In this document: positions 4,561-37,837 of the stretch, piece by piece
Numbering within the stretch: position 1 is the first letter of the stretch
Layout: each line of letters starts with the position of its first letter
Assembly: GCA_002099625.1 (NCBI GenBank)
Contig: GCA_002099625.1_4857.1
Reading direction: 5' to 3' (one strand)
DNA: 64,000 bases
DNA from: Escherichia coli
GTDB taxonomy: Bacteria; Pseudomonadota; Gammaproteobacteria; Enterobacterales; Enterobacteriaceae
Translations under genes and position numbers: made by a program
The notes under the pieces: generated by a model
The model's input: only the letters and a program-made list of their open reading frames with translations
What the model was told of the DNA's origin: nothing
Databases searched by the model: none

Positions 4561-6744
4561 TCACTTTGGTAATTGGTCTAGCCGGAAGCCATCCATGTCA
4601 CGGTCGGCCACGCGCTCGGCAAGCGTCCACTCCTCAAATGACGTCCGCACACGGATAACATCAATAGGCGGCTGTACCATATCGATCACAACATCCTGCT
4701 CGACCTTCACGCGGATACCAGGGTAGACATTCATCCGCAACTTAATACGTTGCGGGATTGCCATTTCCTTTATCACGGGAGCGACAGGGATGGGCTTATC
4801 CGTCGTCATGAATGAACTACGGCTCACACGCTGCACGTCTGTCAGAGGGTAAATGATATTTGTTGTATCGGCAGCCTCTGCGAGAATATCATCCAGAATC
4901 GGGATGACTGGGTCGGTGACATCGTAGGTGTCAGAACCCATACGTGCGGCAAAATGGACAGTGTACGACGAGAGTTTCGTCATTAACCGCACCATCGCGC
5001 GTTGTATTTCAGCTTGTGAGACAGACGCACGTGTTTCCAGATTAGTGGCCACGTTTAAAGCGTCGGTGGCGATGTCCTGCCAGGTTTCCGCGGAGACTAA
5101 CTCGTAATCAAAACCAAACGTTTTGAAGAACTCGTCGTAATCGCGGTAAGGTAGGTCAAGATCGCACTTATAGTCACGGTAATGGTAGGTAAACAGCATT
5201 GTGCCGGCAGCACGGTCGGCTAGCTTGTGTCGATTATACGAGTAACGGTAACGACGACGCTTCTGCACCATGATTTCGCTGATTTCATCGTACAGCTCAT
5301 CTGCAGACATCAAATTGCCGATAACTTCATGATGCGTGTCCGTGTAATAGTTAATCAACGCATTAAAACGGCCGGGCCATGAGCTTGGCAGATGCTGCTC
5401 CATCTCATCAAAACCAACCCAGCGTTTGATTAGCACACCAAACACGTTCCACACCGGGATTTTATCCAGTGCTACACCCGAATAACCTTTGAAGCTCGCA
5501 TACAAGAACAGTGCCAGCAGCTCTTTTGAAGTGAGCTTTAGCGTGTCCCCGTTCGTTGGGTTAAGAATTTCGTGGTAAATGTTGTACTGTCCACGTGCCA
5601 CGATATGCATCCACTCGTTGAACAAGCCATGCATAAATTCCCAACGTTCGATGGCCTCTGGGTCAATCGCCGTTACCTCAACTAACTTCGTTGGCAGGTT
5701 CGGATACTGCGTCAAGCTCAAACGCCGATCGAGGTCTTCCTGATAGTCAGGTTCGTGCACTGGGTTATTGTACGCCAGATTGATTTCTTTCTGGATGATG
5801 TCAGTTGTGCTAACAATGTCCAGGTCACGACCCGAGTCACGTTCAGTATAGTTAAGCGATGACTGGTAGCCGATCGGGAGAGGTGTCAGGTCATCATCAC
5901 TGCCCGTCGTCGGGTCGTGAATCTGCTGGGCGACCTTATATCCAACAGCAGGCATACCCCAACCCGTCAGCAGGGTGTCAATCATCCAGGTAAAGATTTC
6001 TTCCTTACCAGAGTTACGTTCCCAGTAACGGATGTTGCGATACAGTGTGAATTTCTGCTTGAGGGTCAGGTACGGCATGAACTCGTGCAGTTCTTGGTGC
6101 GAAGCCAAGAACTCGGTCACGTAGTAGGAGTGCGTTTCGGTCGTAAACTGTAACCGTTTGCGGATGTACATGATAAGCCCCGGCCACACCGGGTACTGCT
6201 GCATGTAAAAGGCCAGTACGAAACAGTCGTTGTGAACTTTCCAGCCATCGGCCATGAACCGCACATGTGCCGCACGAATAAAGTTCTCAATATGTGTAAT
6301 TAACGACGTCTCCTGCGGTTCAACTAAAGCAGGATCGTAATACAAAATTGAGCAGTCATCGACACGTATCGCGTATGCAATATCAATCGGATTGAAAGTG
6401 CCTCGAATATATACTGCGTAGTCCGGATACTCGGCGATTAAGTCGTCGATATACTCCGGGTTAGAACGATATACGTTTGAGGTCTTTTTATGACGGGAGA
6501 GGTTCTGCGTCGTTAACTCTATCTGCTCTTGCGTGTCGAGTGACGTAATGTATATCGGCTTGTCGATTGCATGTCGTTTACCTGCTAAGTGTAGGTAATA
6601 CCGCCACGTCTCACGGTTCTCGGAAACGAAACCGCCGTTTTTGGTTATTGCCAGGTTCATCTGTTGTGCGATGCTCTCTGATTTGACAATCAGGGATTTC
6701 GCTAACTGGATAGCCTGGTCACGAAAAATGTTAAATCTCTGCAT
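4561..6744 (-). CDS. hypothetical large protein (727 aa)
   Basis: Long ORF; the track start at 6756 is a TTG, first in-frame ATG is at 6744 (MQRFNIFRDQ...). Start lies 11 bp from the divergent plus-strand start at 6756. Confidence 0.55.
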   Translation of the reverse strand: MQRFNIFRDQAIQLAKSLIVKSESIAQQMNLAITKNGGFVSENRETWRYYLHLAGKRHAIDKPIYITSLDTQEQIELTTQNLSRHKKTSNVYRSNPEYIDDLIAEYPDYAVYIRGTFNPIDIAYAIRVDDCSILYYDPALVEPQETSLITHIENFIRAAHVRFMADGWKVHNDCFVLAFYMQQYPVWPGLIMYIRKRLQFTTETHSYYVTEFLASHQELHEFMPYLTLKQKFTLYRNIRYWERNSGKEEIFTWMIDTLLTGWGMPAVGYKVAQQIHDPTTGSDDDLTPLPIGYQSSLNYTERDSGRDLDIVSTTDIIQKEINLAYNNPVHEPDYQEDLDRRLSLTQYPNLPTKLVEVTAIDPEAIERWEFMHGLFNEWMHIVARGQYNIYHEILNPTNGDTLKLTSKELLALFLYASFKGYSGVALDKIPVWNVFGVLIKRWVGFDEMEQHLPSSWPGRFNALINYYTDTHHEVIGNLMSADELYDEISEIMVQKRRRYRYSYNRHKLADRAAGTMLFTYHYRDYKCDLDLPYRDYDEFFKTFGFDYELVSAETWQDIATDALNVATNLETRASVSQAEIQRAMVRLMTKLSSYTVHFAARMGSDTYDVTDPVIPILDDILAEAADTTNIIYPLTDVQRVSRSSFMTTDKPIPVAPVIKEMAIPQRIKLRMNVYPGIRVKVEQDVVIDMVQPPIDVIRVRTSFEEWTLAERVADRDMDGFRLDQLPK

Positions 6745-6755
6745 CGGAGACCCCA

Positions 6756-9500
6756 ATGGAAGATATTAGTAAATTAACGGGCGACCCCGCGGTAGCTGCC
6801 ATACTGCGTAAGTCCACGAGCCCGTCGGCTCAGCAGCAACGCGGTAAGCGTGAAGATGGCGGCGTTACACCAACCCGTACAGAACTCACGGGCATTGCGA
6901 GTAGCCGCATTCGCACCGTTAAAAATGCCGAACGTATCTTTGATGCGCTCCCTGAGTTAGAGGTCATTGTTACCATCGCGACCTCCTCACTCCTGTCCAC
7001 AAAAGATTTGATTAACACCACGCTGATTTACGACAACGTGGCTGATATCCCGATCGACCTGCGTCAACAGTTGTTGGAACCTGTGCGTGAATTCCATGAC
7101 CACACGCGCCAGTTACCCAACAAACTGTATCAGTGGATTTACGATGCACTGAAATCCAAAGGCGCGAGCCCGGTGTTGCTGATTTCAGATACCGGATTCG
7201 ATGAACTCTTCGGCTTAAAGCCGTCTGTTGCAACCGAATCGTTGCGCCGTAGCCAATCTGACTTCTTTGAACGTCAGTTGGGTATCCTGGGCAAGATTGG
7301 CGGTGAAAACAAACCGAAGGTTGGTGTAGAAAGTATTCTGGGCCGTGCACGTGGCGCTGACAAGCCCACCAAGCCACAAACCATTAAACTTAACTTTGCA
7401 GCAGCCCCTAACAGTCCGTTTAAAGCAGACGGTATGTTAGCTTCCCTGGATATCGTTATCACCGACAACCCGCGTATTACCCTGCTACCAGAGGCTTATC
7501 GCCGTGTGGCACAGGAGAATGCTCGCACCGGCCTGTTCGGTCAGTTAGAGCAGTACGCATATGAACAACCTTCTACGCCGACAGGTGCGTCAGAGTATAA
7601 CGCTGACCAGTTCACAGACAGTGAACAAGAGAAGGCAAAACTCGGTTTAATCAACATCGGCGACCTCAACGAAGCGTACCAGAAAACGCCTGAGCAAAAG
7701 CTTTACGGCGAAGTACCGAAGATGAGTTTCTCCGATGCCAACAAAATCGAATACACGGAACGATTACTGCCAGCAGAGTCCACACTCCCGCTCGTTATCG
7801 GCGACGATGTTCGTAACCCCATAGGTTATCTGGCCATCGTTGACGAAATGGGTAACTTCATTAACTCGCGCTCCACACTTTACGGTGATGCGAACTTCAT
7901 GAACTACCTGAACAACGACGGTATGGTGGATTCAACAATCAACCGTGCGAATCTGGGGATGGGCAACACAACCCGAATCACACCAGACATTGCTAACCGC
8001 TTAACAGCGCGTTATGGTGAAATTGCTGAAGACCAGCTAACCAAAGCTCTGGGTGAGGCGTTGGGTGGTGCTGAGATTAGCATGACAGTAACCGAAACGT
8101 TCAGCCGTATCATGCTGGCGCGCCATCTGGCAAAACGTCATACGCAGGTTATCTATATTCCTGCGGAAAACCTTTGCTATTTTGCCACGGACTTTGATGA
8201 AGATGGTATCGGTGTATCTATTACCGAACGCTCGTTCGTTATCTCTACTGTCCGTATGGCGCTGTTGTTCGCTACCATGAACTCTGCGGTGTTGAACTCT
8301 GCACGTCACATGCAGTACGACATTGAGTTGGCACCAGATGACATGAACGGTCAGAAAACAATTGACCAGCTGAAAACAGACATCATGAACTCCTATAACC
8401 GTCGTCAACCGATGTGGGGGGACATGAACGACACCTGGGCAATGACGACAAACGCAGGTATTGCGTTTAACGTTATTGGTAACGACTACTACGGTAGTAC
8501 CAAAGTGTCTGTGTCGGACACTACGCCGGATTATAAATACCCGGATAAGGATTTCGACGAAGGTCTGTTACGACGTACTTGTCACATCGCAGGTGTTGAC
8601 CCTGACCTGGTAATGACCCCCGAGAACATCGAGTTTGCTTCACAGATCTTCTCTAAATCGTTACTGGTCACCCAGCAGGTTGTTAAGAAGCAAGAGATTC
8701 TCTCTAAGCCACTGACACGTTACGTAGTTAATGGGATGTTGGCCTCTCCGTCGTTGCAATCAGCGATGATTAAAATCATTGCAGAGTACATCAATGCTAA
8801 CGGCAATGGGATGACTACTGACCAGATTACGAAAAAGGTCTCTGAGTATCTGGCTGCGTTTATCAACGGTATGAAAGTAACCTTACCACCGCCAGACACC
8901 TCTGCAGCAGCTTCGCAGATGGAGCTGTTCGATAAACGTACGGAGTTCTTTGAGAAGCTGGCTGATCTGGTTGTAACGGATGACATTGCTGCGCAACTCC
9001 AGCAAGAAGGTATCTCGATGGACCCGAACGATCTGAAGACGATGATCAAATCCTTCTATACGCGCAACTGGCTGCGTAAACAAGGTATTGAAACCGACTT
9101 CTTCGATCTGGTTTACGACGATGATTCTCGTCAGGACAACATCACCATGATGACTGATGAAGCGATGGCTGCTTCGAAAACGCTGATTCAATTGGCGAAA
9201 CGTTTCACCGGGCGACTGGAAACGTTAGCGAAGAATGCCGACCTTGATCCTAACGATGCTTCCGGCGGATTCGGTGGTGGTTTTGATGCGGGCGGTGACA
9301 CCGGCGGTGGTGATGGGGATCTCGGCGGTGGGGGTGACGATGATTTAGACCTCGATCTCGATACGGATAACGGCACCGGTGGTGATAGTACAGAGGAAAC
9401 TACTGAGTCGACCGAAACCACGGAAACAACTACCGAGGGAACGGAAGGCACAGAAGGCGGTGAAGGAACTACCGACGACAACCCAGACAACGTCCTCTAA
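6756..9500 (+). CDS. hypothetical large protein (914 aa) with acidic Gly/Asp/Glu/Thr-rich low-complexity C-terminal tail; possibly virion-associated
   Basis: ATG with GGAGA 5 nt upstream; last ~75 aa are GGFGGGFDAGGDTGGGDGDLGGGGDDDLDLDLDTDNGTGGDSTEETTESTETTETTTEGTEGTEGGEGTTDDNPDNVL; followed by a strong bidirectional terminator. Confidence 0.6.
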   Translation: MEDISKLTGDPAVAAILRKSTSPSAQQQRGKREDGGVTPTRTELTGIASSRIRTVKNAERIFDALPELEVIVTIATSSLLSTKDLINTTLIYDNVADIPIDLRQQLLEPVREFHDHTRQLPNKLYQWIYDALKSKGASPVLLISDTGFDELFGLKPSVATESLRRSQSDFFERQLGILGKIGGENKPKVGVESILGRARGADKPTKPQTIKLNFAAAPNSPFKADGMLASLDIVITDNPRITLLPEAYRRVAQENARTGLFGQLEQYAYEQPSTPTGASEYNADQFTDSEQEKAKLGLINIGDLNEAYQKTPEQKLYGEVPKMSFSDANKIEYTERLLPAESTLPLVIGDDVRNPIGYLAIVDEMGNFINSRSTLYGDANFMNYLNNDGMVDSTINRANLGMGNTTRITPDIANRLTARYGEIAEDQLTKALGEALGGAEISMTVTETFSRIMLARHLAKRHTQVIYIPAENLCYFATDFDEDGIGVSITERSFVISTVRMALLFATMNSAVLNSARHMQYDIELAPDDMNGQKTIDQLKTDIMNSYNRRQPMWGDMNDTWAMTTNAGIAFNVIGNDYYGSTKVSVSDTTPDYKYPDKDFDEGLLRRTCHIAGVDPDLVMTPENIEFASQIFSKSLLVTQQVVKKQEILSKPLTRYVVNGMLASPSLQSAMIKIIAEYINANGNGMTTDQITKKVSEYLAAFINGMKVTLPPPDTSAAASQMELFDKRTEFFEKLADLVVTDDIAAQLQQEGISMDPNDLKTMIKSFYTRNWLRKQGIETDFFDLVYDDDSRQDNITMMTDEAMAASKTLIQLAKRFTGRLETLAKNADLDPNDASGGFGGGFDAGGDTGGGDGDLGGGGDDDLDLDLDTDNGTGGDSTEETTESTETTETTTEGTEGTEGGEGTTDDNPDNVL

Positions 9501-9562
9501 ACAAAAAAGAAAAAGAAATAAGGTTTACCTCTCCCTTCGGGGAGAGGTACCTTTTCTTTTTT
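9501..9562. terminator. bidirectional intrinsic terminator between convergent genes
   Basis: Hairpin TACCTCTCCC-ttcg-GGGAGAGGTA (9526-9549) flanked by an A-run upstream and CTTTTCTTTTTT downstream, so it has a U-tract on either strand. Confidence 0.7.
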
Positions 9563-9863
9563 AATCTTCTGTAGCAGCTTTGGGTTTATTAACCAGTTCG
9601 TCGAGCATGATACCAATCGCCAGAGGGTCGTTCTGGAAAGGTTCTAGCTTTTCCAATACCTTTGTATCCTTTGCTGCTTTTAACGCCTTCAGGAGGCCTT
9701 TACGGGCGTTATAGAAGATTTGCCAGCGACGTCCATGACTGATCGCTGTTTTGGCTTTGTGGAAGTCGGCTAAGAAAGCTTCAGTCGCTTTGTTTTCAGG
9801 TAACTCAAAGCGAAAACGCACACTACGCTCAAAATCCATGTTGACAACAATGAACTTTACCAT
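9561..9863 (-). CDS. hypothetical protein
   Basis: 100-aa ORF, ATG start with GAGG nearby; preceded by an AT-rich palindrome. Confidence 0.45.
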   Translation of the reverse strand: MVKFIVVNMDFERSVRFRFELPENKATEAFLADFHKAKTAISHGRRWQIFYNARKGLLKALKAAKDTKVLEKLEPFQNDPLAIGIMLDELVNKPKAATED

Positions 9864-9875
9864 GCTCGAACCTCA

Positions 9876-9894
9876 TTATAGAGCTACTCTATAA
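9876..9894. promoter_or_regulatory. perfect 8-bp-arm inverted repeat TTATAGAG-cta-CTCTATAA next to the RBS of 9561..9863
   Basis: Read directly; on the minus strand it reads TTATAGAGtagCTCTATAAtGAGGttcgagcATG, i.e. a hairpin or operator immediately 5' of the SD and containing a TATAAT hexamer. Confidence 0.4.
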
Positions 9895-9897
9895 TAA

Positions 9898-10164
9898 TTA
9901 CGCCAGCGTAATGTGGTACTTATCAATGTCAGGGAATCGCTCTTTGATCATCCCGCAGAACATATCTAGCACCGGATCAGTTTTTGCGGCCTTCTCCATC
10001 TCAGGAAAAACGCTACGCAGTGGCACGCCAGGGTTCTGCCCTGCCGTTTTCTTAAGCTCTTCTTTATACTTTGCCAACAGAGATTTAACCCCTGTTGTCT
10101 TCGGGAAGCCACACCCTGCGACCCCATCGTTTTCAAAATAGATTACTGCTTCAACACTAGACAT
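9898..10164 (-). CDS. hypothetical small protein
   Basis: Track ORF starts at a GTG (10182); in-frame ATG at 10164 (MSSVEAVIYFEND...) has GGAG about 9 nt upstream. Confidence 0.45.
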   Translation of the reverse strand: MSSVEAVIYFENDGVAGCGFPKTTGVKSLLAKYKEELKKTAGQNPGVPLRSVFPEMEKAAKTDPVLDMFCGMIKERFPDIDKYHITLA

Positions 10165-10184
10165 TTTAATACTCCATTTCACGG

Positions 10185-10222
10185 TAGAATAAAAAATAAT
10201 AATAGGAGACCCGAAGGTCTCC
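10185..10222 (-). terminator. intrinsic terminator downstream of 10230..11906
   Basis: Hairpin GGAGACC-cgaa-GGTCTCC (10205-10222) followed on the minus strand by a T-rich run (plus-strand GAATAAAAAATAATAATAG). Confidence 0.6.
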
Positions 10223-10229
10223 GTATTAC

Positions 10230-11906: not shown

Positions 11907-11937
11907 TGTAAATAATACTCCTTAAGAGATGTAATAA

Positions 11938-13716: not shown

Positions 13717-13727
13717 ACCGGCCTCCC

Positions 13728-14732
13728 TCAGAGAATCATCCCAACGAGTGCTACCCCTGCAGCCAAATACGCGGGAATGGATTTCAAGAACTCCGAGCTA
13801 TCTTTTCGCTGATAAGCTCGGGACTCGTATTGGTCTTTACGAACATCGGAACGCAACTTAAGCTCATTCGTCTGGATTGCGTTAAGGGTGTTAATCCTCT
13901 CCTTCTCCAGCGCCAGATTATTAAGTTGCGTACGATAATCGAGGTCTTGCCGATTCTTTTTCTCATCGAGATCTTGCAACTTGGCCTGATACGTGGCTTC
14001 CAGCTTCGCACGAACATCTCGCAACTCTGGAATGTTATCGAGCCACCGATAACGCCTCGCTTCATCTTCAGATGCAAACGCCCGGAACGGGGACATCGGG
14101 TCATCGAAAGCGTACATTATCATCTTACCCCCTTCGACACACTCCGCACCACCGATTACCATGTAAATACCCTCGTCGTAATACTTCGATCGAATCGGTT
14201 CGACTTCCAACATCGTTGTATAGAACCTCAGCCACTTTAAAGGTGCTGGGTCTTCGTACTTCTGCACAACTACCACGCCCAAGGCAAATTCTTTACGATC
14301 CCCTCCAGGCTTACCAATAACCTCAGAATCGAGTTTTACTGGTTGGGTAGAGAAAGCCATTCCTAGCTTCTTCAACACCACCAAGTCGCCTCGCATTAAT
14401 GCACCGATATCATCAACTACATACATCAGCGTTGTTTCGCCGTTCGTAGTTAATTCCTTACATATCTGCGCATACTGCTTTGGCGAATGTGCGTCGCGCA
14501 AACCAGATAGGTTAGCACCGTTCGCAAACACCGTATAGGTCACGTAAATAACAATCCCAAATTCCGCCGCTGTGGTGGACGACGGGGCTAAAACAAAATG
14601 CCCGCCACTGAGTTCAGTGACGTAAATGGGAAACCCGGTATTATTTTCGTACGTGATAGTCTTCGACACGGCACCACGGTGCATGGGCCGCTGGGTTAGC
14701 GTTGGCTGAACGTCTAAATCATAACGGTTCAT
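13728..14732 (-). CDS. hypothetical protein with coiled-coil region and C-terminal transmembrane anchor
   Basis: Track start at 14756 is a TTG; first ATG at 14732 (MNRYDL...). C-terminus ...FLKSIPAYLAAGVALVGMIL is hydrophobic; 15-mer promoter motif lies 39 nt upstream of the ATG. Confidence 0.5.
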   Translation of the reverse strand: MNRYDLDVQPTLTQRPMHRGAVSKTITYENNTGFPIYVTELSGGHFVLAPSSTTAAEFGIVIYVTYTVFANGANLSGLRDAHSPKQYAQICKELTTNGETTLMYVVDDIGALMRGDLVVLKKLGMAFSTQPVKLDSEVIGKPGGDRKEFALGVVVVQKYEDPAPLKWLRFYTTMLEVEPIRSKYYDEGIYMVIGGAECVEGGKMIMYAFDDPMSPFRAFASEDEARRYRWLDNIPELRDVRAKLEATYQAKLQDLDEKKNRQDLDYRTQLNNLALEKERINTLNAIQTNELKLRSDVRKDQYESRAYQRKDSSEFLKSIPAYLAAGVALVGMIL

Positions 14733-14771
14733 TGAGCATCCCAGTAATAATACCAAAAGAATTATTCACGT

Positions 14772-14786
14772 AGATAATATCTATCT
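14772..14786 (-). promoter_or_regulatory. conserved 15-mer AGATAATATCTATCT (copy 1 of 5), putative phage promoter
   Basis: Exact 15-mer shared with four other sites; 39 nt upstream of the ATG of 13728..14732 on the minus strand. Confidence 0.55.
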
Positions 14787-15576: not shown

Positions 15577-15591
15577 AGATAATATCTATCT
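15577..15591 (-). promoter_or_regulatory. conserved 15-mer AGATAATATCTATCT (copy 2 of 5), putative phage promoter
   Basis: Exact 15-mer; sits between the capsid-candidate terminator (15602-15640) and the start of 14838..15536, 40 nt from the ATG. Confidence 0.55.
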
Positions 15592-17981: not shown

Positions 17982-18506
17982 TTATTTAGATAAATGACAT
18001 GCGTACAACTGCGTCAGCACTTCGTGCGCAGCAAACTGCGTCGACGTACTGAACGTATCATCCACGACACGAGTCTTGGGACGCATATATTTAAAAAGTT
18101 CTGCGCAGAACATCTTTTTCGCAGCGTGGTCTTCACTTAAAGAAAAACCCGGTCCGGATTTAGCTTCTGCAAAAGACGCCACAACAACATCGCCACGTTG
18201 TGAGAACACCCAACGTAAACGACCGTCGAATGATTCCCCATATAAATCAGCAAGGGTTTCATTCGTACCTTTCTCAACCAGGTTTAAGACCTGGTCATAA
18301 TAAAGAGTCGGAAGTGCAGGTGGTGCCATAATCGATTTATAAATCGAAATAGGGTCACTCACTGGCAGTATGATGGAACTAAAGCCCGACGAGCAGTCAT
18401 ATAACCAGTTAAAGAAGCTTGCTTGGAGTTCCTCCAACTTTTTAACGCCAGCCCCTTTATCTATGTTAGATTGAACTTCCCACGGTGGACTAAAACGAAT
18501 TTGCAT
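17982..18506 (-). CDS. hypothetical protein
   Basis: Track ORF extends to 18560 and overlaps the divergent plus gene; the ATG at 18506 (MQIRFSPPWEV...) with GGAG about 10 nt upstream is the likelier start. Confidence 0.45.
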   Translation of the reverse strand: MQIRFSPPWEVQSNIDKGAGVKKLEELQASFFNWLYDCSSGFSSIILPVSDPISIYKSIMAPPALPTLYYDQVLNLVEKGTNETLADLYGESFDGRLRWVFSQRGDVVVASFAEAKSGPGFSLSEDHAAKKMFCAELFKYMRPKTRVVDDTFSTSTQFAAHEVLTQLYACHLSK

Positions 18507-18520
18507 TTTAAGGATGCTCC

Positions 18521-20083
18521 ATGAATAGTAAAATGATGTTGATAACCGCCTTAGCCGCACTGTATACAGAATCTATGCTGACGGACCCTAGCAAGGATCA
18601 TGATGTCATAAGAAAAGTTCTGATGCAGATCAAGCTTCCGGAATATGCGGAAGATGGCGAAGAGCGCTTTGCACTCATCGAGATCAAGGACATTATCACA
18701 TCTATCATAGACGGCGGCATGGAATACGACCACGCGAGCGTTATGAAGCGCTTGAAGCTGGCCACCACTCAAGTACGTCCTCTATACGATACGATTACCA
18801 AATTCCTCGAAGACGATTTGCCCGAGGAAGAAGACAAACGTACCGAGCATCTTAATCGACAACTGTCTCAATATTATTTCCAATTACGTCAATGTTTACA
18901 GAGCGTCGAACTCAAAACAAAAATGGGTCGCGCGTTCGGAGCATTGAATGGAACTGAGACACGTGTTGATCTGAACACCGCAGTGCTCGAACTCAAAGAG
19001 GCGCTATCTACGTTCGGTGAACGCTCTCATAATAAGATTCCATCACTGGTTGGTGAGCTGGTTACGGATAATCGTGCTCCGTTTGTTAAAGTGTTCGACT
19101 CGATTAACAAGAAAGCAGCAGGTAATGGTTTGCAGACGGGCTGGAAAGCCATTAACCAAATGCTCGGTTGTAACAAAGGGATTACCGAAGAACTGTGGCT
19201 AATGCCGGCGTTACCTTTTAACTGTAAGTCTTTGTTCAGTCTCTTACTGAGCTTGTCGATTCCTATCTTCAACACGCCTGAGAAAGTAATGGCGGATGTG
19301 AAGGGCACACTGCAACCAATTATTCTTGACTTGAGTTTAGAAAACGAACTCGACGTTAACTTAGCTTACGGCTATCAAGCACTGTACGGTCATTTTGAAG
19401 GACAAGTTCCACAGATGACCATTGCCCAAGATGCGACCGCTGAAGAGAAGTTAGCACACACAACAGCAATGTCTGATTACCTCTGTGGTAAGATTCGCGC
19501 AAACGGTTGGGACTACGTTTTCCAAAAGCACACCAACTCCGATTTTAAAGTGCACTACATCAACGACCTTATTCTCGACTTACGTCGTCGCGGTTATCAT
19601 GTTGTTGGCATTCGCGCAGACTACTTAGGCACAATCAGCAAAGCAGGACACGGCAACGGTATTGCCGGGAGTGATATCAAAGAAATTTATCGTATTGCTC
19701 GTAACATCCAAGTGGTACGCAACCGTGGGTTCTTAATTGCCCCACACCAGATTTCCCCAGAAGGTAAGCGCTTAAAAGCGTTAGACCCGGTAGGTTTCTG
19801 TAAGAACTTACCTGGTCGTGGTCTTTACGATAGTTGTTCGAGCCTTGATAACGAGGCCGATGGTGAAATGTATTTTAACAAGCGTGTGGTCAACGGCCAT
19901 AGCTTCTTAGAAGTTCAACGCGGTAAGCACCGCACCATTATCGATACTAAAGAATCTTATCACTACACAGTGATACCTTTCCAGGATGTTGGCATCCTGC
20001 CTTGGGATTGTGATAAAGAAGAAACCGTAACAGCGTCGTCTATCAACTTCTTCACCGGTGGAATGGGTGATGATTTGTTCTAA
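18521..20083 (+). CDS. hypothetical protein (520 aa)
   Basis: ATG with AAGGA 6 nt upstream; lone plus-strand gene in a minus-strand block; followed by GC-rich hairpins. Confidence 0.55.
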   Translation: MNSKMMLITALAALYTESMLTDPSKDHDVIRKVLMQIKLPEYAEDGEERFALIEIKDIITSIIDGGMEYDHASVMKRLKLATTQVRPLYDTITKFLEDDLPEEEDKRTEHLNRQLSQYYFQLRQCLQSVELKTKMGRAFGALNGTETRVDLNTAVLELKEALSTFGERSHNKIPSLVGELVTDNRAPFVKVFDSINKKAAGNGLQTGWKAINQMLGCNKGITEELWLMPALPFNCKSLFSLLLSLSIPIFNTPEKVMADVKGTLQPIILDLSLENELDVNLAYGYQALYGHFEGQVPQMTIAQDATAEEKLAHTTAMSDYLCGKIRANGWDYVFQKHTNSDFKVHYINDLILDLRRRGYHVVGIRADYLGTISKAGHGNGIAGSDIKEIYRIARNIQVVRNRGFLIAPHQISPEGKRLKALDPVGFCKNLPGRGLYDSCSSLDNEADGEMYFNKRVVNGHSFLEVQRGKHRTIIDTKESYHYTVIPFQDVGILPWDCDKEETVTASSINFFTGGMGDDLF

Positions 20084-22640: not shown

Positions 22641-22664
22641 CACCTAGGTAATATATATCTGAAA
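22641..22664 (-). promoter_or_regulatory. conserved element CACCTAGGTAATATATATCTGAAA (copy 1 of 2), putative phage promoter
   Basis: 24/24 identity with 31146-31169 and similar over ~40 bp; about 50 nt upstream of the ATG at 22588; minus-strand reading contains TATATATTAC. Confidence 0.5.
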
Positions 22665-22830: not shown

Positions 22831-23628
22831 TTACATCAAATCCAGGCTCTGAGAGACCGCAACTTCCGGTTCACTGATGCCGCTGGTCACTGACAATGTA
22901 AAGCGACGATCGTTAATCACTTCAACTGCCTCGCTCGCACGCAGTGAATACTTATCGGCGATTGGCAGTACACTGTTATCGTTCTGTGGCGGCAGAATCT
23001 GTGCCGGGAACGGAATGTACGAGTTGAAAGTGATATACGGACCGACTTGCATCATCGGGAACACTTCGTTCACGTTATTCGACATCCCTTCATCCGAAGA
23101 GATAACGGAGTGACGCAGACAGGCACGCAAGCCAACGGTGTACTCCGGATCGCGCGATTCGCCGATCAGTGCGAAACGGAACACGTTGAAATCGTAGTCG
23201 TCTGCAGCGAAGTGTTCTGGCAGGATACGCTGTACGTATTCAGGGTAAGTGGTCACGTCACCCGGAATAACATTCACGGCGAGTTTCTGTGCCAGGAAAT
23301 ACGCATTCGCGAAACCGTACTGCCCCGCCAGCGCAGCTGATATCGGTGCAGTGGTTACGCAGTGCAGGAACAAGTGATAACCCAGCCCGCCTTTATCTTC
23401 GATTGCCAGGTCCTTCTTACTCTGCACACCGTCAGCAGTATAAATAACTGCCACTGTTTTATCCAACGTTGATGCCATGACAAAATCCAACTGCACCTCA
23501 CCGCTTTGCGGCAGTACCTTAACCAGGCGATCCCAGAGCTTGGTCGGTTTGGTGAAGTTAGCGGCTTCGTACGCATCAATGTCGAGAACAGTTTGGCCGG
23601 TCATGCGAAAGGTGTGAATCGCTTTCAT
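22831..23628 (-). CDS. hypothetical protein
   Basis: 265-aa ORF on coding strand. Confidence 0.55.
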   Translation of the reverse strand: MKAIHTFRMTGQTVLDIDAYEAANFTKPTKLWDRLVKVLPQSGEVQLDFVMASTLDKTVAVIYTADGVQSKKDLAIEDKGGLGYHLFLHCVTTAPISAALAGQYGFANAYFLAQKLAVNVIPGDVTTYPEYVQRILPEHFAADDYDFNVFRFALIGESRDPEYTVGLRACLRHSVISSDEGMSNNVNEVFPMMQVGPYITFNSYIPFPAQILPPQNDNSVLPIADKYSLRASEAVEVINDRRFTLSVTSGISEPEVAVSQSLDLM

Positions 23629-28359: not shown

Positions 28360-28395
28360 TAGCTGTCCCTCGTTGTAGTCATATCACTGGCCTAA

Positions 28396-28430: not shown

Positions 28431-28436
28431 CGTGTT

Positions 28437-28766: not shown

Positions 28767-28767
28767 T

Positions 28768-29687: not shown

Positions 29688-29693
29688 CTCACA

Positions 29694-29727
29694 ATCCCAA
29701 AAAAGAAGGTGGCTTGTTAGGCCACCT
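29694..29727 (-). terminator. intrinsic terminator downstream of 29735..30280
   Basis: Hairpin AAGGTGGC-ttgttag-GCCACCTT (29705-29727) followed on the minus strand by CTTTTTTGG. Confidence 0.55.
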
Positions 29728-29734
29728 TATTAAA

Positions 29735-30280: not shown

Positions 30281-30338
30281 TATAAATACTCCTTACGATT
30301 AATGGTCGATTACATACGGTTTCAGGCTAACGTAATAT

Positions 30339-31100: not shown

Positions 31101-31145
31101 ATTCCTTAAGTAATGGTCAGTTAGTAAAGCAAATCATTGTTTGCT

Positions 31146-31169
31146 CACCTAGGTAATATATATCTGAAA
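31146..31169 (-). promoter_or_regulatory. conserved element CACCTAGGTAATATATATCTGAAA (copy 2 of 2), putative phage promoter
   Basis: 24/24 identity with 22641-22664; lies between the terminator 31187-31227 and the ATG at 31100, about 45 nt upstream. Confidence 0.5.
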
Positions 31170-31186
31170 ATTATTGTAATCGGAGA

Positions 31187-31227
31187 CAAAAAAAGAAGAG
31201 GTAAATCCCCCACCGAAGTGGGGGATT
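31187..31227 (-). terminator. intrinsic terminator downstream of tandem paralogue A
   Basis: Hairpin AATCCCCC-accgaagt-GGGGGATT (31204-31227) followed on the minus strand by TACCTCTTCTTTTTTTGTC. Confidence 0.65.
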
Positions 31228-31238
31228 CGCCAGTCTAA

Positions 31239-32498: not shown

Positions 32499-32575
32499 CT
32501 TTTTCTATCCTCTAGGCGGTACGCCGTGTACCGCCATTAATGATTTGTCAACTGACGTTCAGTACGTAAAGCGGA

Positions 32576-33853
32576 TTAAGCTTTAGACTTTTCGTACGCG
32601 CCAATACCAGCACCGATGTAGCCGTTCAGGCCGCTGATAACAGTGTTACCAACGTGAGCCACAGCACGGTTCAGAGTCTGGTAGTTACGCACAGCCTGGT
32701 CAGCCGCAGTGCGTGCATTACGCAGCGCTTCCCACTCGCCTTCGTCGTTGGATTTTTTCAGAGCGGCAGCAGCTTTGGCAGCAGCCTCTTCCAGTTTCTC
32801 AACGTCAGCGTCGTAGCTGCGGAAGTCTTGCAGGACTTTCTCGAAGCCTTTACCGATAACGTCCAGGGCAGACGCAGCAGATGCCAGTGCAGAAATAGCC
32901 GGAGTAGCGATTTCTTTCGTTTCAGAAACGTCACCCGTCGACAGGAAGGCCACTGCGGTGAATTCCTGACCGCCTGCCAGAGTTTTGCTGCCGGTCTGTA
33001 CATAGGCGTTGCCTGGCAGTGCCAGAACTTTCTGACCGCCTTCGCCGTCTTCGAATTGCGGCAGTGCGCGCAGTTTCTTCGCAGCGGTACCAAACAGGGC
33101 AACGTCAACAGCGCCTTTAGCAGCGGTTGCGGTACCGTCTGAAGTTTTGGTGATCGCTACAGCAGAGTCAGCCGCCTGAGAGGACAGCTTGTTGATGGCA
33201 TCTTTCGCTTTACCGCCGGTCAGCTCTTTCGCGATAGCGATAGAGTTGGCCACATCGAATTCACCTTCGATAGACAGTTTGCTAATAAAGCCACCAGAAA
33301 TGTTTTCTTTCTTCTGTTTGCCGAGCTTACGCAGCATCTCCTGGTAAGCTTTCGCACGTTTCTGCGCGGACTTACCAACGTTGATGTACTTCAGTTTCAG
33401 CTCTTTCGCTTTCGCGATAACTGCTTTACACAGTTCAACGAAGCGTTCGAACAGATCTTTCAGGGTTTCTTTCCAGCCTTCCTGAGCTGCTTTGGTCATG
33501 CCACGGCCGCGACGATAAGATTCGCGTGCCAGTTTGGTACGATCGATAGCCCAACGCTTACGGATAGATTCCTGCGCCACTTCGGTGTGAGCGATGGCTT
33601 CTTCAGGCATCTCTTCACCGTTTTCGATTTTTTCGTCAGCAGCGTCGATAGCAGCTTCGGTACGCTCGGTATCAGCAGCCAGGGTTTCCTGGTCACCATC
33701 GAGCTGTTCCAGCTGACCGTCGATAGACGCAACTTCTGCCAGCTGAACGTCGATGTTCTCTTCTGCCGGTTCAACGTTGCTCAGACCGTCGATTACGTCG
33801 CCGGTAGCTTCAACGGACTCGCGGGCGAGTTTACTTTTTACAAAGTTTGCCAT
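32576..33853 (-). CDS. abundant alpha-helical Ala/Lys-rich protein, tandem paralogue B (425 aa)
   Basis: Same N- and C-terminal peptides as paralogue A; shared internal blocks AQESIRKRWA, LGKQKK-x-x-ISGGFI, GLNGYI-x-AGIGAYEKSK; codon-biased. Confidence 0.6.
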   Translation of the reverse strand: MANFVKSKLARESVEATGDVIDGLSNVEPAEENIDVQLAEVASIDGQLEQLDGDQETLAADTERTEAAIDAADEKIENGEEMPEEAIAHTEVAQESIRKRWAIDRTKLARESYRRGRGMTKAAQEGWKETLKDLFERFVELCKAVIAKAKELKLKYINVGKSAQKRAKAYQEMLRKLGKQKKENISGGFISKLSIEGEFDVANSIAIAKELTGGKAKDAINKLSSQAADSAVAITKTSDGTATAAKGAVDVALFGTAAKKLRALPQFEDGEGGQKVLALPGNAYVQTGSKTLAGGQEFTAVAFLSTGDVSETKEIATPAISALASAASALDVIGKGFEKVLQDFRSYDADVEKLEEAAAKAAAALKKSNDEGEWEALRNARTAADQAVRNYQTLNRAVAHVGNTVISGLNGYIGAGIGAYEKSKA

Positions 33854-33886
33854 TTGTTTCGGTTCCTTTGGTTATAACCCAATTAC

Positions 33887-33920
33887 ACGCCCCTAGATAA
33901 GGGGCCCCCTTAGGGACGTG
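33887..33920. promoter_or_regulatory. nested dyad symmetry (CACGCCCCTA ... TAGGGACGTG enclosing TAAGGGG-c-CCCCTTA) between 33910..34467 and paralogue B
   Basis: Read directly; overlaps the stop codon of the upstream gene and lies about 35 nt upstream of the paralogue B start; no U-tract on the minus strand. Confidence 0.35.
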
Positions 33921-34467
33921 CGATTTTTAAAAACACTGCTAACGACGAGATCATATCGGATAACCCGTTCGGACGTGTCAACCAACGTGCCAGCAGTTCG
34001 TGGTCTGCATAAGATAATAGACGCCGGTCAGGCGTGTACGTCTGATGCGCAGTTCCCATACGGCGAACTTGCCCACTACGACCGTAAGCCGCAGCAAGAA
34101 GTCGTGAGCCCAGAGAACCAGTTCGCTCTACTTGCTTAGTAGAGTGGATATCGTTCATGTACGATACCAGAAGAACGGACCACTGTCCTGTTGACACTGT
34201 ACGGCGTTTACCGTCAAGTATGAACGATGCAGTTTCGTTATAGAACGTATTAAACGTAAAACCGACCTGCGGATATTCGTCATATAATACTTGTTGGACA
34301 GAGTCAGCGCCCATCATGCGGAAATACGGCAACACAACGGCTGCAGCTTCCAGGGTTTCATGTATCAGTTCGTCGTCATGAACCAGCACGGGGTTTTGGG
34401 TCAGTTTCGCCATGTAGTTTTTAATCAACTTCTCGGCGAGGTTAAAATTCTGGTCATTGTCAAACAT
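33910..34467 (-). CDS. hypothetical protein
   Basis: 185-aa ORF on coding strand. Confidence 0.5.
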   Translation of the reverse strand: MFDNDQNFNLAEKLIKNYMAKLTQNPVLVHDDELIHETLEAAAVVLPYFRMMGADSVQQVLYDEYPQVGFTFNTFYNETASFILDGKRRTVSTGQWSVLLVSYMNDIHSTKQVERTGSLGSRLLAAAYGRSGQVRRMGTAHQTYTPDRRLLSYADHELLARWLTRPNGLSDMISSLAVFLKIARP

Positions 34468-34490
34468 GAGACTCTCCTGATAATACGGTC

Positions 34491-35423
34491 TTAGACCAGA
34501 CCGTATTTTTTCTCCAGACGTTCACGTTTGTACTTGAGTTCCATCAAACGCTTTTCGTGCGCTTCGATGAGTTTCTCAATGTGCACGTCCCCTTCACCGG
34601 CAGCCAGTTGTTTCTTGTACAACAGAATACGCAGCTCAGTCGCTTTCGCGGCTTCCACGCACTCGTCGTAACGATCCATTTGCCATTCTGCAATGTTCAG
34701 ACGCACGCGGTAAATAATCGACAGCGGGAACGGAACGGAGGACATACCCAGTGGGTCAGTGGTGTTCGAACCGAACTGCTGAACCAATTGGCTATATGTC
34801 TCTTCGTCAAACACCGCTTCAGGTATCTCAGCGTAGTCTGCTTTCAGTTTGGTAATGGGGGTTGCCAGGACGCGCACCGCAATACAGAAAGACGTCTTAC
34901 GAGTTTGCAGATACTGAAGGTCTTTCGGACCGATTCCCTTCACTGCAATGTTCGAGTCTTGTACAGCGGCAATCTCTTCGGCCGTGATGTAGTTAATCAG
35001 GGTGCTAGCGTAACCGACGAAGAATTCGATCATATCCAGCAACTGCAACACGGTTTGTTTGTTGAACGTTAGAGATGATGTCACTAACGTCTTCCCGATG
35101 TCGCGGTCGATACACTGCTCCAGGAAAGGTCGCAGCGCCTGTACGTTCTGCATAGACGCGATGACGTACTCCAGCATACTTGCGTTACGTAACCCTTTAA
35201 CTTCCAAACCGGAGCTATGCAGGTACTTAACGATTTCAGTAGAAAGGTCAGCAACAGGCTTCGCTTTAAATGGCTTACCCTGGATACTTCCTACCAGTTC
35301 CTGGAGGTTCTGGAACTGTGGCTCTAACGCAGCAATCGAGTCGCAGTTAGATGACAGTTGGTTTTTTAAGTTCGTGGCTTCGAAGCTCGGCAGCAACATC
35401 GCCAACATATTCGGAATCGGCAT
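34491..35423 (-). CDS. hypothetical protein
   Basis: Track ORF starts at 35468 and overlaps the upstream gene by 35 nt; the ATG at 35423 (MPIPNMLAML...) just after the upstream stop is the likelier start. Confidence 0.5.
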   Translation of the reverse strand: MPIPNMLAMLLPSFEATNLKNQLSSNCDSIAALEPQFQNLQELVGSIQGKPFKAKPVADLSTEIVKYLHSSGLEVKGLRNASMLEYVIASMQNVQALRPFLEQCIDRDIGKTLVTSSLTFNKQTVLQLLDMIEFFVGYASTLINYITAEEIAAVQDSNIAVKGIGPKDLQYLQTRKTSFCIAVRVLATPITKLKADYAEIPEAVFDEETYSQLVQQFGSNTTDPLGMSSVPFPLSIIYRVRLNIAEWQMDRYDECVEAAKATELRILLYKKQLAAGEGDVHIEKLIEAHEKRLMELKYKRERLEKKYGLV

Positions 35424-35433
35424 TCTTTTCCCC

Positions 35434-36552
35434 TTACAGTACCGGATTCGCGCCGACGCGATAGGCATCGATGATTTTGTTTACATCGCCGCTACCGGAC
35501 TTCGCCTTGCTAAAGTCTGATTTGTCGAGTTCTTGAGACCCGGTCTGACCACGCGTATAAATGGTTACACGGTTCCAGGTCTGGTCGACAACCACGTAGT
35601 AAACAGTCAGGGTGTCTTTGAACACACGCTGGCGGATATTGTAATCATCGAAGTCACCGCCCAGCTGAGCAGTCAGATCGTCGATAGTTTCTTGAGAAAC
35701 CACCATAACCGAAGACGCGTTGTTGATGGATGGGCTCAGCGTCAGCAGGCCAGACAGCCAGTTGGCGTTTTTCTTTTCCATCATCTTACGGTAATAACCG
35801 GACTTATCACGGAAGCGGTTCTTACGGTATTCTTCAATGAGGTCATTACACAGCGCGATATCTTTCGCGTAGCTGAGAGAACCGACCTTCGCACGCAGCA
35901 CACGTTCCCAGAAGGTTTTGGTTTGATCGCTGAACGCAATGAGCGTTTTCATTTCGTCGGTCGGCAGAGACTTCACATCAAGACGCAGACGCATCGGCAG
36001 CTCGACTTTATTACCGTCACGTTCGAAGGTAACAGAGAACACTTTACCGTTGGACAGACCTTCTTGATCATGCAGGAGCTTCAGCGTGTTGTTCGGCAGC
36101 ACAGAACCTGCGGACGATTCAGTCGCTACTTTGTTATCGGATTTCTGGCGACGGGATTCACCGACCGCAAGCCCGATTTTATCGTATGACGGCAGCGCGT
36201 GACGGGAGGACTCGCCGATTGCGAAAGACGCTAAGCGAGAACCCGAACGTGCAGCCGCGTCGAGGGCATTACGACGGGTGCTAACCTGGTCAAGCGTACC
36301 AAGGATATCAACCTCAGGAACACCTACCAGAATTGAGATGGCGGTAAGTTGGTTGCCCGCGAGCAGGATTTGGATTTTCTCCAGAATACCTGGCAGGTAA
36401 TCTAAGCCCAACAGACTTTGTTCAACCAGCGTGGTGTGCTCGTTGTACAGCACAGAGTTGAATTCTTCCGTCGATTCCGCCCGCTGGCGAAGCAGCATGG
36501 GAAACTTAGAAAGAAAGGAGACGAGCGATGTCTCAAATGTTTTTTCTGCCAT
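35434..36552 (-). CDS. hypothetical protein (372 aa)
   Basis: ATG at 36552 with GGAG on the minus strand inside the palindrome CTCCGGAG shared with the divergent plus-strand gene. Confidence 0.55.
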   Translation of the reverse strand: MAEKTFETSLVSFLSKFPMLLRQRAESTEEFNSVLYNEHTTLVEQSLLGLDYLPGILEKIQILLAGNQLTAISILVGVPEVDILGTLDQVSTRRNALDAAARSGSRLASFAIGESSRHALPSYDKIGLAVGESRRQKSDNKVATESSAGSVLPNNTLKLLHDQEGLSNGKVFSVTFERDGNKVELPMRLRLDVKSLPTDEMKTLIAFSDQTKTFWERVLRAKVGSLSYAKDIALCNDLIEEYRKNRFRDKSGYYRKMMEKKNANWLSGLLTLSPSINNASSVMVVSQETIDDLTAQLGGDFDDYNIRQRVFKDTLTVYYVVVDQTWNRVTIYTRGQTGSQELDKSDFSKAKSGSGDVNKIIDAYRVGANPVL

Positions 36553-36574
36553 TTTTAACTAAACTCCGGAGTTA

Positions 36575-37837
36575 ATGATGAGTAACGAGACCGATAAGAA
36601 CGATCCGGGGTATGACCCGAATACCGACTACGACAATTCGTATCAAAACCCGAATAATATCGATGCAGTACCATCGGTCGCCGACTACTTTGACCGTCGA
36701 CTGTCCGATGCGAAACCCACCACGGCGTACAACGTTAATGATGAGTTATCGGGTTGGAATGACCGTATCCGTCTTACGTTAGGTTTGGGTCTGGCTGCGC
36801 AGCGTGTGACCAACCCCTACATGGGGTTCAACCATATGATGGCGTCGAACCCGACGCCTGTTAACCGTGAGTACGGTGGCCTAACCTTCATTACCCGCCC
36901 TGACTTCAACTTGTGCTTTGACAACATTGCCAACTCGCGCAAGATGTCGAACATGGCTTCTCAGCCGAAATCGTCACTCGACTATTCCATTCTGGCAGCG
37001 TTAGACCCAGATTTTGAATTGGGGTTCTCTGATTCACCGATGGAAGATGGACGAAGAAAGAACCGTTTGGGCACGCCATTCATGAAGGACATTATGTTTG
37101 ACAATCTTCAGGCATTCATACCATTGCTGAGTACGCAGATGCTGAGCCTCTCGGGGATGCCTGACCAGTCTGTCGATAACTGGATGTCTGAAGAAGGTTT
37201 AATGCGCGAACAGTGGGGTATGGTTGACTCCACACATGAAATCAATAACCAGTACAGCATGTCAATGTCGCTGAACAACCCATACGGCAACCCTATCATG
37301 CGAATGATGGGCGTGTGGCTGGAATATATGTCCGGCATTAAGATGGGTAAGTTCAAACCGAAGATGCGTAATTCCATCCAACGTCGCATTGACTACCAGT
37401 CGAGGATGTACGGGTTTAAATACGACGCGCTCGGAAACATCACTCGTTTCTGGACAGCGTGTGTTTGTTGGCCAATGAACGATAACGCCGGTCAAATGGC
37501 GAATGTCGATAACACCAAGCCTCAATTAAATGACGACACCACAATTAACCTCAACTGGCAATGCATCGGGGCGCGCTTCGATGACCCATTGTACATGGAG
37601 ATGTTCAACTTGACGGTGTCTATGTTTAACCCGGATATGATGCCGCAACCAGGGAGCGTTGCAGCGGGCAACTTTATCCCGATTGCTGAAGACCAGCTTG
37701 TGCCGATTGCACCACAGCTACTACCGCTGTTCAACTACTACGGCTATCCGCACATCGACTCCCTGCGTCGTAAACTGACCTGGTATGTTTATCAGGCAGA
37801 TTACCAATTCATCCTTAAACGAGCGGGCTTACTGTAA
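36575..37837 (+). CDS. hypothetical protein (420 aa)
   Basis: ATG at 36575 with GGAG 10 nt upstream; only 22 bp separate it from the divergent minus-strand start. Confidence 0.55.
   Translation: MMSNETDKNDPGYDPNTDYDNSYQNPNNIDAVPSVADYFDRRLSDAKPTTAYNVNDELSGWNDRIRLTLGLGLAAQRVTNPYMGFNHMMASNPTPVNREYGGLTFITRPDFNLCFDNIANSRKMSNMASQPKSSLDYSILAALDPDFELGFSDSPMEDGRRKNRLGTPFMKDIMFDNLQAFIPLLSTQMLSLSGMPDQSVDNWMSEEGLMREQWGMVDSTHEINNQYSMSMSLNNPYGNPIMRMMGVWLEYMSGIKMGKFKPKMRNSIQRRIDYQSRMYGFKYDALGNITRFWTACVCWPMNDNAGQMANVDNTKPQLNDDTTINLNWQCIGARFDDPLYMEMFNLTVSMFNPDMMPQPGSVAAGNFIPIAEDQLVPIAPQLLPLFNYYGYPHIDSLRRKLTWYVYQADYQFILKRAGLL

Follow-up and report, generated by a model that had tools for sequence, protein, structure and literature searches.

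How are two genes transcribed when they point away from each other and their start codons lie only 11–25 nucleotides (nt) apart? The question is raised by three divergent junctions, called J1 to J3 here, in a 64,000-nt stretch of DNA from an Escherichia coli assembly (GCA_002099625.1, contig GCA_002099625.1_4857.1), which was analysed as a whole and is referred to as the window. Judged by its sequence, the window is that of an SPN3US-like, phiKZ-related jumbo phage (Seoulvirus). It is 97–99% identical to SPN3US-like Salmonella, Escherichia and Proteus jumbo phages and lies antiparallel to SPN3US coordinates ~23–88 kb; gene names follow the SPN3US numbering. At J1, gp82 on the minus strand and the portal gene gp81 on the plus strand are separated by 11 nt. 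At J2, 14 nt separate gp74 (minus) from the helicase gene gp73 (plus), and at J3, 25 nt separate gp50 (minus) from gp49 (plus), with gp48 next. The junctions are real, evolutionarily maintained back-to-back translation starts. We consider it probable, though well short of certain, that the genes are transcribed from TATG promoters embedded in the open reading frame (ORF) of the neighbour.

Geometry of three tight divergent junctions

The original prediction, made from the letters of the window, had the divergent ORFs at 6744/6756 and 18506/18521 beginning almost back-to-back. Direct reading and the SPN3US GenBank/RefSeq annotation agree on this, the latter having gaps of 11, 14 and 25 nt at J1, J2 and J3 and the same starts as in the window. 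The comparison set consisted of seven annotated relatives plus, from IMG/VR, 17–21 loci per junction. When conservation was used to set the starts, the gap was 11–15 nt at J1 (17/17 loci), 11–14 nt at J2 (19/19) and 20–29 nt at J3 (21/21), and these tight gaps were kept across at least five genera, though the flanking proteins drop to 53–68% identity. The 17 annotated divergent gaps of the SPN3US genome measure 11, 14, 25, 29, 57, 63, 66, 67, 70, 72, 76, 98, 124, 163, 180, 206 and 280 nt (median 70), J1–J3 being the three tightest of the whole genome. The other divergent junctions in the window measure 70 nt (gp45/gp44 DNA polymerase) and 66 nt. By these sequence comparisons, the tight gaps of J1–J3 exceed chance.

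Each gap is made up largely of two Shine-Dalgarno (SD) sequences. The start codon of gp82, an 84-kDa virion protein, is an ATG on the minus strand (6742..6744; CAT in 17/17 loci) and that of the portal gene lies on the plus strand at 6756..6758. Between them the J1 gap CGGAGACCCCA (6745..6755) carries GGAG (6746–6749) as the plus-strand SD of the portal gene and GGGG(T), the complement of CCCC at 6751–6754, as the minus-strand SD of gp82. The two are crossed (cGGAGaCCCCa): each adjoins the start codon of the opposite gene and doubles as its spacer. The core CGGAGACCCC(A/G) was present in 14/17 loci, and a lineage resembling Erwinia phage Derbicus has TGGAGACAACTCCGG. J2 has the same crossed arrangement (AAGGAtGCTCC). 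Its gap TTTAAGGATGCTCC (18507..18520), with AAGG(A/T)TGCTCC in all 19 loci, holds AAGGA (18510–18514) for the helicase and, as the complement of 18516–18520, GGAGC for gp74, each adjoining the other gene's start codon and serving as its spacer. The gp74 start codon is at 18504..18506 on the minus strand (CAT in 19/19 loci), and the start codon of the DnaB-like helicase gp73 is at 18521..18523 on the plus strand. The head protein gene gp74 is the first gene of the gp74–gp75 unit, in which the major capsid gene gp75 begins 12 nt after gp74.

At J3 the two SDs adjoin each other (CTCC|GGAG), and their A/T-rich spacers measure 11 and 6 nt. The head protein gene gp50 has its start codon on the minus strand at 36550..36552 (CAT in 21/21 loci), and the gap spans 36553..36577. 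The near back-to-back starts proposed for 36552/36575 were borne out. The 22-nt gap was not: the gap is 25 nt, since the conserved gp49 start codon is at 36578..36580 on the plus strand, the invariant Met being M2 of the window protein. The earlier in-frame ATG, at 36575, was found only in Seoulvirus and one other lineage. The palindrome at this junction had been read as a Shine-Dalgarno sequence shared by both strands. It does supply GGAG to both, but not from common bases, since CTCCGGAG at 36564–36571 is two adjacent half-sites, one per strand.

That such gaps leave no room for promoters had to be checked and not assumed, because phiKZ-type late promoters need little beyond a TATG at the start site. 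The claim stands. No TATG was found on any of the six gap strands of J1–J3 in the window, and matches to sigma-70-like promoters around the junctions were at chance level. Nothing that could serve as a shared intergenic promoter region was seen in these gaps of 11–25 nt, each filled by its two SDs. Intrinsic terminators around the junctions did not exceed chance either, small hairpins at J2 and J3 apart, and no Rfam family was matched in the window.

Invariant antisense TATG sites in the flanking genes

In phiKZ, infection is independent of the host polymerase, and the virion polymerase recognises AT-rich early promoters. The non-virion polymerase of phiKZ uses late promoters with TATG as their sole consensus and starts at the G (Yakunina 2015, PMC4666361); all four bases of TATG are required in late promoters of this type. 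Middle promoters have in addition AAanTTACc near −24 (PMC4666361). Reviews of jumbo-phage transcription hold that middle and late promoters are not predictable by bioinformatics and that the features beyond TATG for late promoters are unclear. Several genes are annotated as 'RNA polymerase beta subunit' in SPN3US, two of them inside the window (54103–58445), an assignment that comes from annotation only.

If the gaps hold no promoters, each gene's promoter had been expected to lie inside the other's coding region or far upstream. The comparative data support promoters inside the partner, less firmly for gp82 and gp74: an antisense TATG, read as CATA along the ORF, is invariant in all six J1–J3 ORFs (17–21 genomes). 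CATA was the commonest invariant 4-mer in the six flanking ORFs (8/164, against 0–2 for 4-mers of the same composition), and no invariant CATA was found among the 138 invariant 4-mers of four control ORFs, those of the major capsid protein (MCP), gp48, gp51 and gp83. Arithmetically this enrichment corresponds to (164/302)^8 ~ 0.008. Six further control ORFs (~11 kb) had no invariant CATA either. In the helicase, portal, gp49 and gp50 genes the TATG lies at or beside the gene's most synonymously constrained spot. Over all ORFs of the window compared with synonymous shuffles, TATG was depleted (176 observed, 282 expected; 0.62, z −9.1), as was CATA (58 observed, 109 expected; 0.53, z −6.1), both being among the most depleted 4-mers, while 4-mers of the same composition were not depleted in these ORFs. 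This avoidance suggests that TATG functions as a signal in either orientation.

J2 offers the strongest case of putative facing embedded promoters, with predicted leaders of ordinary length, 56 and 101 nt. For the helicase, a predicted middle-type promoter TTTTTAAC-N15-TATG occupies gp74 codons 14–23 on the plus strand (18439..18465), with its TATG in 19/19 genomes, a predicted start site at G18465 and a 56-nt leader. Its layout is that of phiKZ middle promoters, which have an A/T-rich ...TTAC(c) element centred near −24 and, often, TATG at the start. At this position a perfect TTTTTTAC(A/G)-N14-TATG is present in the Derbicus-like lineage. For gp74 and the major capsid gene, a predicted late-type promoter or start site TTTTCTTATGAC lies on the minus strand in helicase codons 29–30 (18607..18610), with a start at 18607 and a 101-nt leader. 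Helicase codons 29–31, GTC ATA AGA (minus strand TCTTATGAC), had zero synonymous diversity in 16–19 of 19 genomes while the flanking codons vary; this was the lowest synonymous-diversity window of 277 and includes a 9-nt invariant run. The two predicted transcripts would overlap by 143 nt (18465–18607). The helicase ORF has another invariant antisense TATG, AATCTTATTATG (19028..19031, minus strand; 19/19 genomes), 522 nt upstream of gp74 in a nearly invariant CAT AAT AAG ATT.

Three further features were noted within gp74. Directly upstream of the predicted helicase promoter, a partly conserved plus-strand hairpin TTGGAGTTCCTCCAA followed by CTTTTT (18423–18437) might shield that promoter from antisense read-through. 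The palindrome AGTTCTGCGCAGAAC(T) at 18097–18111, which precedes the start of the major capsid gene by ~130 nt and is invariant in 19 genomes, is the longest invariant run among the six genes examined; in front of the capsid gene it could act as a binding site or fold into an RNA hairpin. A TATG on the sense strand, TTATATGGG (18239–18242, minus strand), is likewise invariant; it precedes the major capsid start by 270 nt and may serve that gene alone as an internal promoter.

At J1 an invariant antisense TATG in the gp82 ORF (6489..6492, plus strand; CATA in 17/17 genomes) gives a predicted portal mRNA start at G6492 and a 264-nt leader. Its context, (G/A)GT(T/C)TT(C/T)TTATG, resembles the gp74 site, and its synonymous constraint was moderate (7th lowest of 235 windows). 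On the other strand, the invariant antisense TATG of the portal ORF (7558..7561, minus strand; 17/17 genomes) lies 814 nt upstream of the gp82 start. Here portal codons 268–269, CATATG (7558–7563), form the lowest synonymous-diversity window of 328 in this 914-codon gene, and CA was retained through an Ala to Ser replacement (GCA to TCA). This site is a candidate for a long-leader gp82 promoter or for an antisense RNA start. A nearer minus-strand TATG at 6800–6803, which would have given gp82 a 56-nt leader, was rejected as it is absent outside Seoulvirus.

At J3 the gp50 ORF has an invariant antisense TATG (ATCGTATGA; 36185..36188, plus strand; 21/21 genomes), from which gp49–gp48 transcription is predicted to start at G36188 with a 390-nt leader. 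The surrounding gp50 codons TCA TAC GAT were invariant in 21/21 genomes despite the six Ser codons, and formed the lowest of 204 synonymous-diversity windows. In the gp49 ORF, two antisense TATGs are invariant in 21/21 genomes. The first (36833..36836, minus strand) would start gp50 transcription at 36833 with a 281-nt leader and adjoins the gene's lowest synonymous-diversity window; the second (37117–37120, minus strand) lies inside the second-lowest. In gp49 the A was kept through a Met to Arg replacement, AGA or AGG being used and never CGN.

The window also holds a conserved hairpin, GAGACG-AGCGA-TGTCTC, in gp50 codons 7–12 (36518..36534, plus strand), 44–60 nt upstream of the gp49 start. 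Its pairing was supported by the alignment, with 85% of cells paired compared with at most 47% when the structure was slid and with one pair covarying between GC, AU and CG. G-U pairs numbered six on the plus strand and one on the minus strand, and the element may belong to the gp49 mRNA leader or be an attenuator.

Two other junctions were examined alongside J1–J3. In the 70-nt gap of the comparison junction J4 (44381..44450), between gp45 and the DNA polymerase gene gp44, sequence and relatives support a middle-type gp44 promoter (ATACG, then TATAG at 44421–44425). One invariant antisense TATG in gp44 (44568–44571, minus strand) lies 188 nt upstream of gp45 and would give an overlap of 144 nt, and gp45, whose partner gp44 has its promoter in the gap, contains no invariant CATA. 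A TATG in the J4 gap was rejected as gp45 promoter, SPAsTU being without it. A fourth tight junction lies outside the window between gp239 and gp240 (SPN3US 23326–23360), with a gap of 29 nt (23–32 nt in relatives); it sets a 259-kDa tail protein against a virion polymerase subunit with a GTG start. Tested as an out-of-window case, it had exactly one invariant antisense TATG in each ORF.

The middle-type pattern TTTTTTAC(A/G)-N14-15-TATG is also conserved upstream of four genes in intergenic DNA, as phylogenetic footprinting of the clade showed, with the TATAG variant in the gp44 gap, and matches the phiKZ middle class. A regular-expression scan for middle-type sites gave a modest enrichment, 7 matches where 2.7 were expected; footprinting is the stronger evidence.

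Several word-usage observations stand apart from these sites. The 15-mer AGATAGATATTATCT occurs exactly on the minus strand at 14772–14786, 15577–15591, 58476–58490, 62219–62233 and 63635–63649, and with two mismatches on the same strand at 22646–22660 and 31151–31165. It precedes several genes, among them those for polymerase subunits at the divergent junction of 66 nt, and is conserved in relatives. Five exact plus two near copies were not reached in 100 shuffles, and 9 matches were found at up to three mismatches where 1.3 were expected; this is probably the early (virion polymerase) promoter class of the clade. GATC was the most depleted 4-mer in the window ORFs (137 observed, 285 expected), an avoidance that suggests pressure from host Dam or restriction systems. 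SD-like words (GAGG, GGAG, AGGA) and A/T homopolymer runs were depleted as well.

In the model that we propose for J1–J3, phage RNA polymerases would start at TATG-type promoters inside the neighbour's coding sequence, antisense to that neighbour. Embedded in this way, the two promoters of a pair would face each other, and the mRNAs would have complementary 5′ leaders spanning both ribosome-binding sites, each leader being complementary to the SD and start codon of the other mRNA. At J2 the middle-type TTTTTAAC-N15-TATG would drive the helicase and the late-type TTTTCTTATGAC the gp74/major-capsid unit. Beyond the short overlaps at J2 and J4, the predicted overlaps are ~650 nt at J3 (36188–36833) and up to ~1.07 kb at J1 (6492–7558). 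Extensive antisense transcription, which the original prediction had drawn from the lack of promoter space, stays a prediction for J1–J3. More speculatively, promoter occlusion or polymerase collision might combine with mutual masking of ribosome-binding sites by RNA pairing, and expression of the two units might be coupled or opposed, for example by shutting off the helicase as late capsid transcription rises.

A number of points weigh against embedded promoters. The predicted leaders of 264, 281, 390 and 814 nt far exceed the 31–40 nt of most phiKZ leaders. The cases of J1 and J3 are weaker than that of J2 because of these long leaders, the distance of the portal site from gp82, and the J3 hairpin, which the scan found terminator-like and which separates gp49 from its predicted start site. 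The gp74 site is statistically weak, as background diversity is low there and it ranks 12th lowest of 73 windows. An extended late motif, TTTTCTTATGA, drawn from the gp74 site and the portal site in relatives, was rejected as a consensus, with 19 matches at up to two mismatches in the window where 18.9 were expected. In phiKZ itself TATG is necessary but not sufficient, the further determinants being undefined (PMC4666361). Use of its own RNA polymerases is established for phiKZ, and for SPN3US it is inferred from homologous genes. The 17–21 genomes compared amount to some 6–8 independent lineages, and the synonymous-diversity test carries no correction for phylogeny. A literature search found no transcript data for SPN3US-like phages, so that all start sites given here are predicted.

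Some of these points would fit better with the alternative that survives best, which we nonetheless regard as rather unlikely: that expression depends solely on distant promoters or read-through, the invariant antisense TATGs reflecting protein constraint, RNA or DNA structure, or the starts of regulatory antisense RNAs. Some sites are indeed very far from the partner's start (~1.3 kb in gp240, besides the portal site), TATG alone does not make a phiKZ promoter, a terminator-like hairpin precedes gp49, and phiKZ makes some defined antisense RNAs. However, the sites occur in every ORF situated upstream of a divergent neighbour without a promoter and are absent from ~19 kb of control ORFs (~5.4 kb at 15–21 genomes and 11.3 kb at 6–7, with MCP and gp48 in both). 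It is the synonymous positions that are constrained, and the constraint persists through amino-acid replacement. Between the J1 and J2 sites and their partners there is no terminator-like site, save the one directly upstream of the predicted helicase promoter, and at J2 both predicted leaders are of ordinary length.

Alternative readings of the junction sequences

It is improbable, in our estimate, that the junction sequences, above all the J3 palindrome AACTCCGGAGTT, are the operator of a dimeric regulator or a hairpin controlling both genes. The palindrome measures 12–18 nt across relatives; it exceeds CTCCGGAG by 2–5 nt in most lineages and reaches 18 nt in Caitlin and as much as 18 nt in Machinavirus relatives, its flanks underwent one symmetric change (AA..TT to TA..TA), and the phage encodes a helix-turn-helix DNA-binding protein. 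Against this, the symmetric change happened just once, in one clade, flanks made up only of A and T will pair by chance in about half of cases, and a possible hairpin would have only 4–7 mostly A-U pairs. The octamer CTCCGGAG was present in 20/21 loci, the remaining one having CCCCGGAG. It occurs once in the 64-kb window, which speaks against a regulon and led us to reject it as a repeated operator, and neither J1 nor J2 is palindromic. In a gap of 20–29 nt, two SDs that have A/T-rich spacers of 6–11 nt are forced side by side. The J3 palindrome is what two optimal SDs in ~25 nt must look like, and a role as operator or hairpin is not needed. A small upstream ORF (36530–36574) ending at the gp49 start was also considered at this junction and rejected, as it is not conserved in relatives.

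Less probable again is that the start codons were mis-called, with true starts further downstream that leave ordinary intergenic promoter space. Every start is a computational annotation, and GenBank records do disagree: the annotation of Derbicus (NC_048173) has a 69-nt gap at J1 (41717–41787) and an 18-nt overlap at J3 (14398–14415). In all six genes, however, protein conservation sets in at the annotated Met and the initial codons differ only synonymously, amino acids being conserved with synonymous variation from codon 2. In gp82, codons 2–8 keep their amino acids while varying synonymously. M1, K6 and D10 are invariant in the portal protein, as are M1, N2, K4 and M6–A12 in the helicase, where N2 and K4 vary synonymously only. 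Upstream of each gene, several lineages have an in-frame stop or lack an alternative start. In three loci the stop immediately precedes gp74, gp82 is without an upstream alternative in several lineages, the portal gene has 7 open codons without an alternative start in Seoulvirus/Erskinevirus, and the helicase has none in 14/15 distinct lineages. A conserved SD lies 6–11 nt before every annotated start. The helicase does have Met5 and Met6 just downstream, yet a start at either would enlarge the gap to 26–29 nt at most. By comparison with related phages, all six start codons are supported.

The Derbicus sequence itself has conserved junctions, CAT-15 nt-ATG at J1 and CAT-21 nt-ATG at J3. Because of these 15-nt and 21-nt junctions, the RefSeq starts of the Derbicus orthologues of portal, gp79, gp51 and gp52 appear to be mis-set.

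Published mass spectrometry of SPN3US virions bears on the same question. It detected gp74, gp81, gp82, gp49 and gp50, and none of the five starts was reassigned, although the start of the nearby gp47 was moved. Virion masses of gp81, gp82 (seen at 84.4 kDa), gp49 and gp50 agree with the annotated lengths, whereas gp74 is listed at 12.9 kDa (Supplementary Table 1, PMC5694885), a mismatch that could be taken as a sign of a wrong start. The gp81 and gp50 proteins shed long N-terminal propeptides, that of gp50 comprising 127 residues (processed at ATE-127), so virion samples cannot reveal their N-termini. As to gp74, the 174-codon ORF (17982–18506) predicts ~20 kDa, and the listed 12.9 kDa (PMC5694885) may be a typographical error or reflect processing or another gene model.

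Leaderless or very-short-leader mRNAs starting inside the gaps without antisense overlap, conceivable in that phiKZ late promoters have no upstream consensus and a start might fit a very short gap, are the least credible reading, since the conserved SDs reach the opposite start codon and leave no more than 1–4 nt before the SD at J1 and J2, TATG is absent from all these gaps in the window, leaderless mRNAs were not detected in phiKZ, and the polymerase footprint would cover the neighbour's ORF even for an in-gap start.

Known divergent systems and implications

Read as embedded facing promoters, J1–J3 are functionally closest to the divergent excludons of Listeria, E. coli and S. aureus, and would be a compact variant of overlapping divergent transcription units. 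In both cases neighbouring genes diverge over short gaps, so that transcripts must overlap, transcriptional interference and double-stranded RNA are expected, and the pairing of the genes is syntenically conserved (PMC12288877). The E. coli core set comprises 16 excludons, and the mean excludon gap is ~95 nt (PMC12288877), compared with 11–25 nt here, where overlap would be obligatory by geometry and not conditional. The predicted promoters at J1–J3 differ further in that they lie in ORFs and would serve phage multisubunit RNA polymerases, and overlap here is predicted from geometry and putative start sites, with mutual exclusion a possibility. The setting, too, is that of a phage whose phiKZ-like relatives build a nucleus-like compartment.

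With phiKZ the SPN3US clade has in common the TATG at the presumed start and, in middle promoters, a T-rich ...TTAC ~16 nt upstream. The order of helicase (orthologue), small head protein and major capsid genes is also as in the window. In phiKZ the experimentally mapped late promoter P119L is found in an intergenic region of 211 nt and gives a leader of 47 nt, whereas the window has a 14-nt gap, a candidate inside the helicase ORF and a 101-nt predicted leader. In the SPN3US clade this intergenic region has collapsed, and the signal appears within the helicase gene. We rejected gp74 as an orthologue of phiKZ gp119; the two have no detectable sequence similarity, and gp74 is a positional counterpart only. 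The gp128/portal junction of phiKZ measures 35 nt.

The pR/pL pair of coliphage 186 is a host-polymerase lysis/lysogeny switch under a repressor, with transcriptional interference. Like J2 (143 nt) and J4 (144 nt) as predicted, it has face-to-face promoters over a short overlap. In pairs of this kind one partner is expected to be much stronger, at J2 the capsid unit. J2 differs in that both units are lytic genes of a virulent phage and in that the promoters would be within coding sequence. Divergent genes of the araC-araBAD type are possibly co-regulated, as J1–J3 may be, but share 100–300 nt of regulatory DNA with both promoters, unlike J1–J3, whose gap is two ribosome-binding sites only.

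This is a known kind of system and not a new one, and its moderate, specialist value comes from precise promoter predictions. Since there is no intergenic space, promoters must lie in coding sequence, and such junctions are natural experiments in which purifying selection acting at synonymous sites exposes promoters. The outcome is some ten start-site predictions at single-nucleotide resolution, a genome-wide signal of TATG avoidance, and corrected start-codon annotation in at least one RefSeq relative, Derbicus. Should the predictions fail, the junctions would remain extreme but ordinary genome compaction.

A more far-reaching version, which we hold only tentatively and think somewhat doubtful, is that the junctions form a conserved set of obligate divergent overlaps, with promoters for the phage's non-canonical RNA polymerase kept as islands in the coding sequence of a TATG-purged genome and with facing transcription and complementary leaders as built-in regulators. 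If so, synonymous-constraint scanning would be a general way to map promoters that are hard to predict and to learn their determinants beyond TATG. Promoter occlusion and leader pairing would suggest a simple mechanism for switching off a replication gene as capsid synthesis starts: with the capsid unit active, the helicase would be silenced in a middle-to-late switch. The same arrangement would balance the output of head-assembly genes at the portal and gp49/gp50 junctions.

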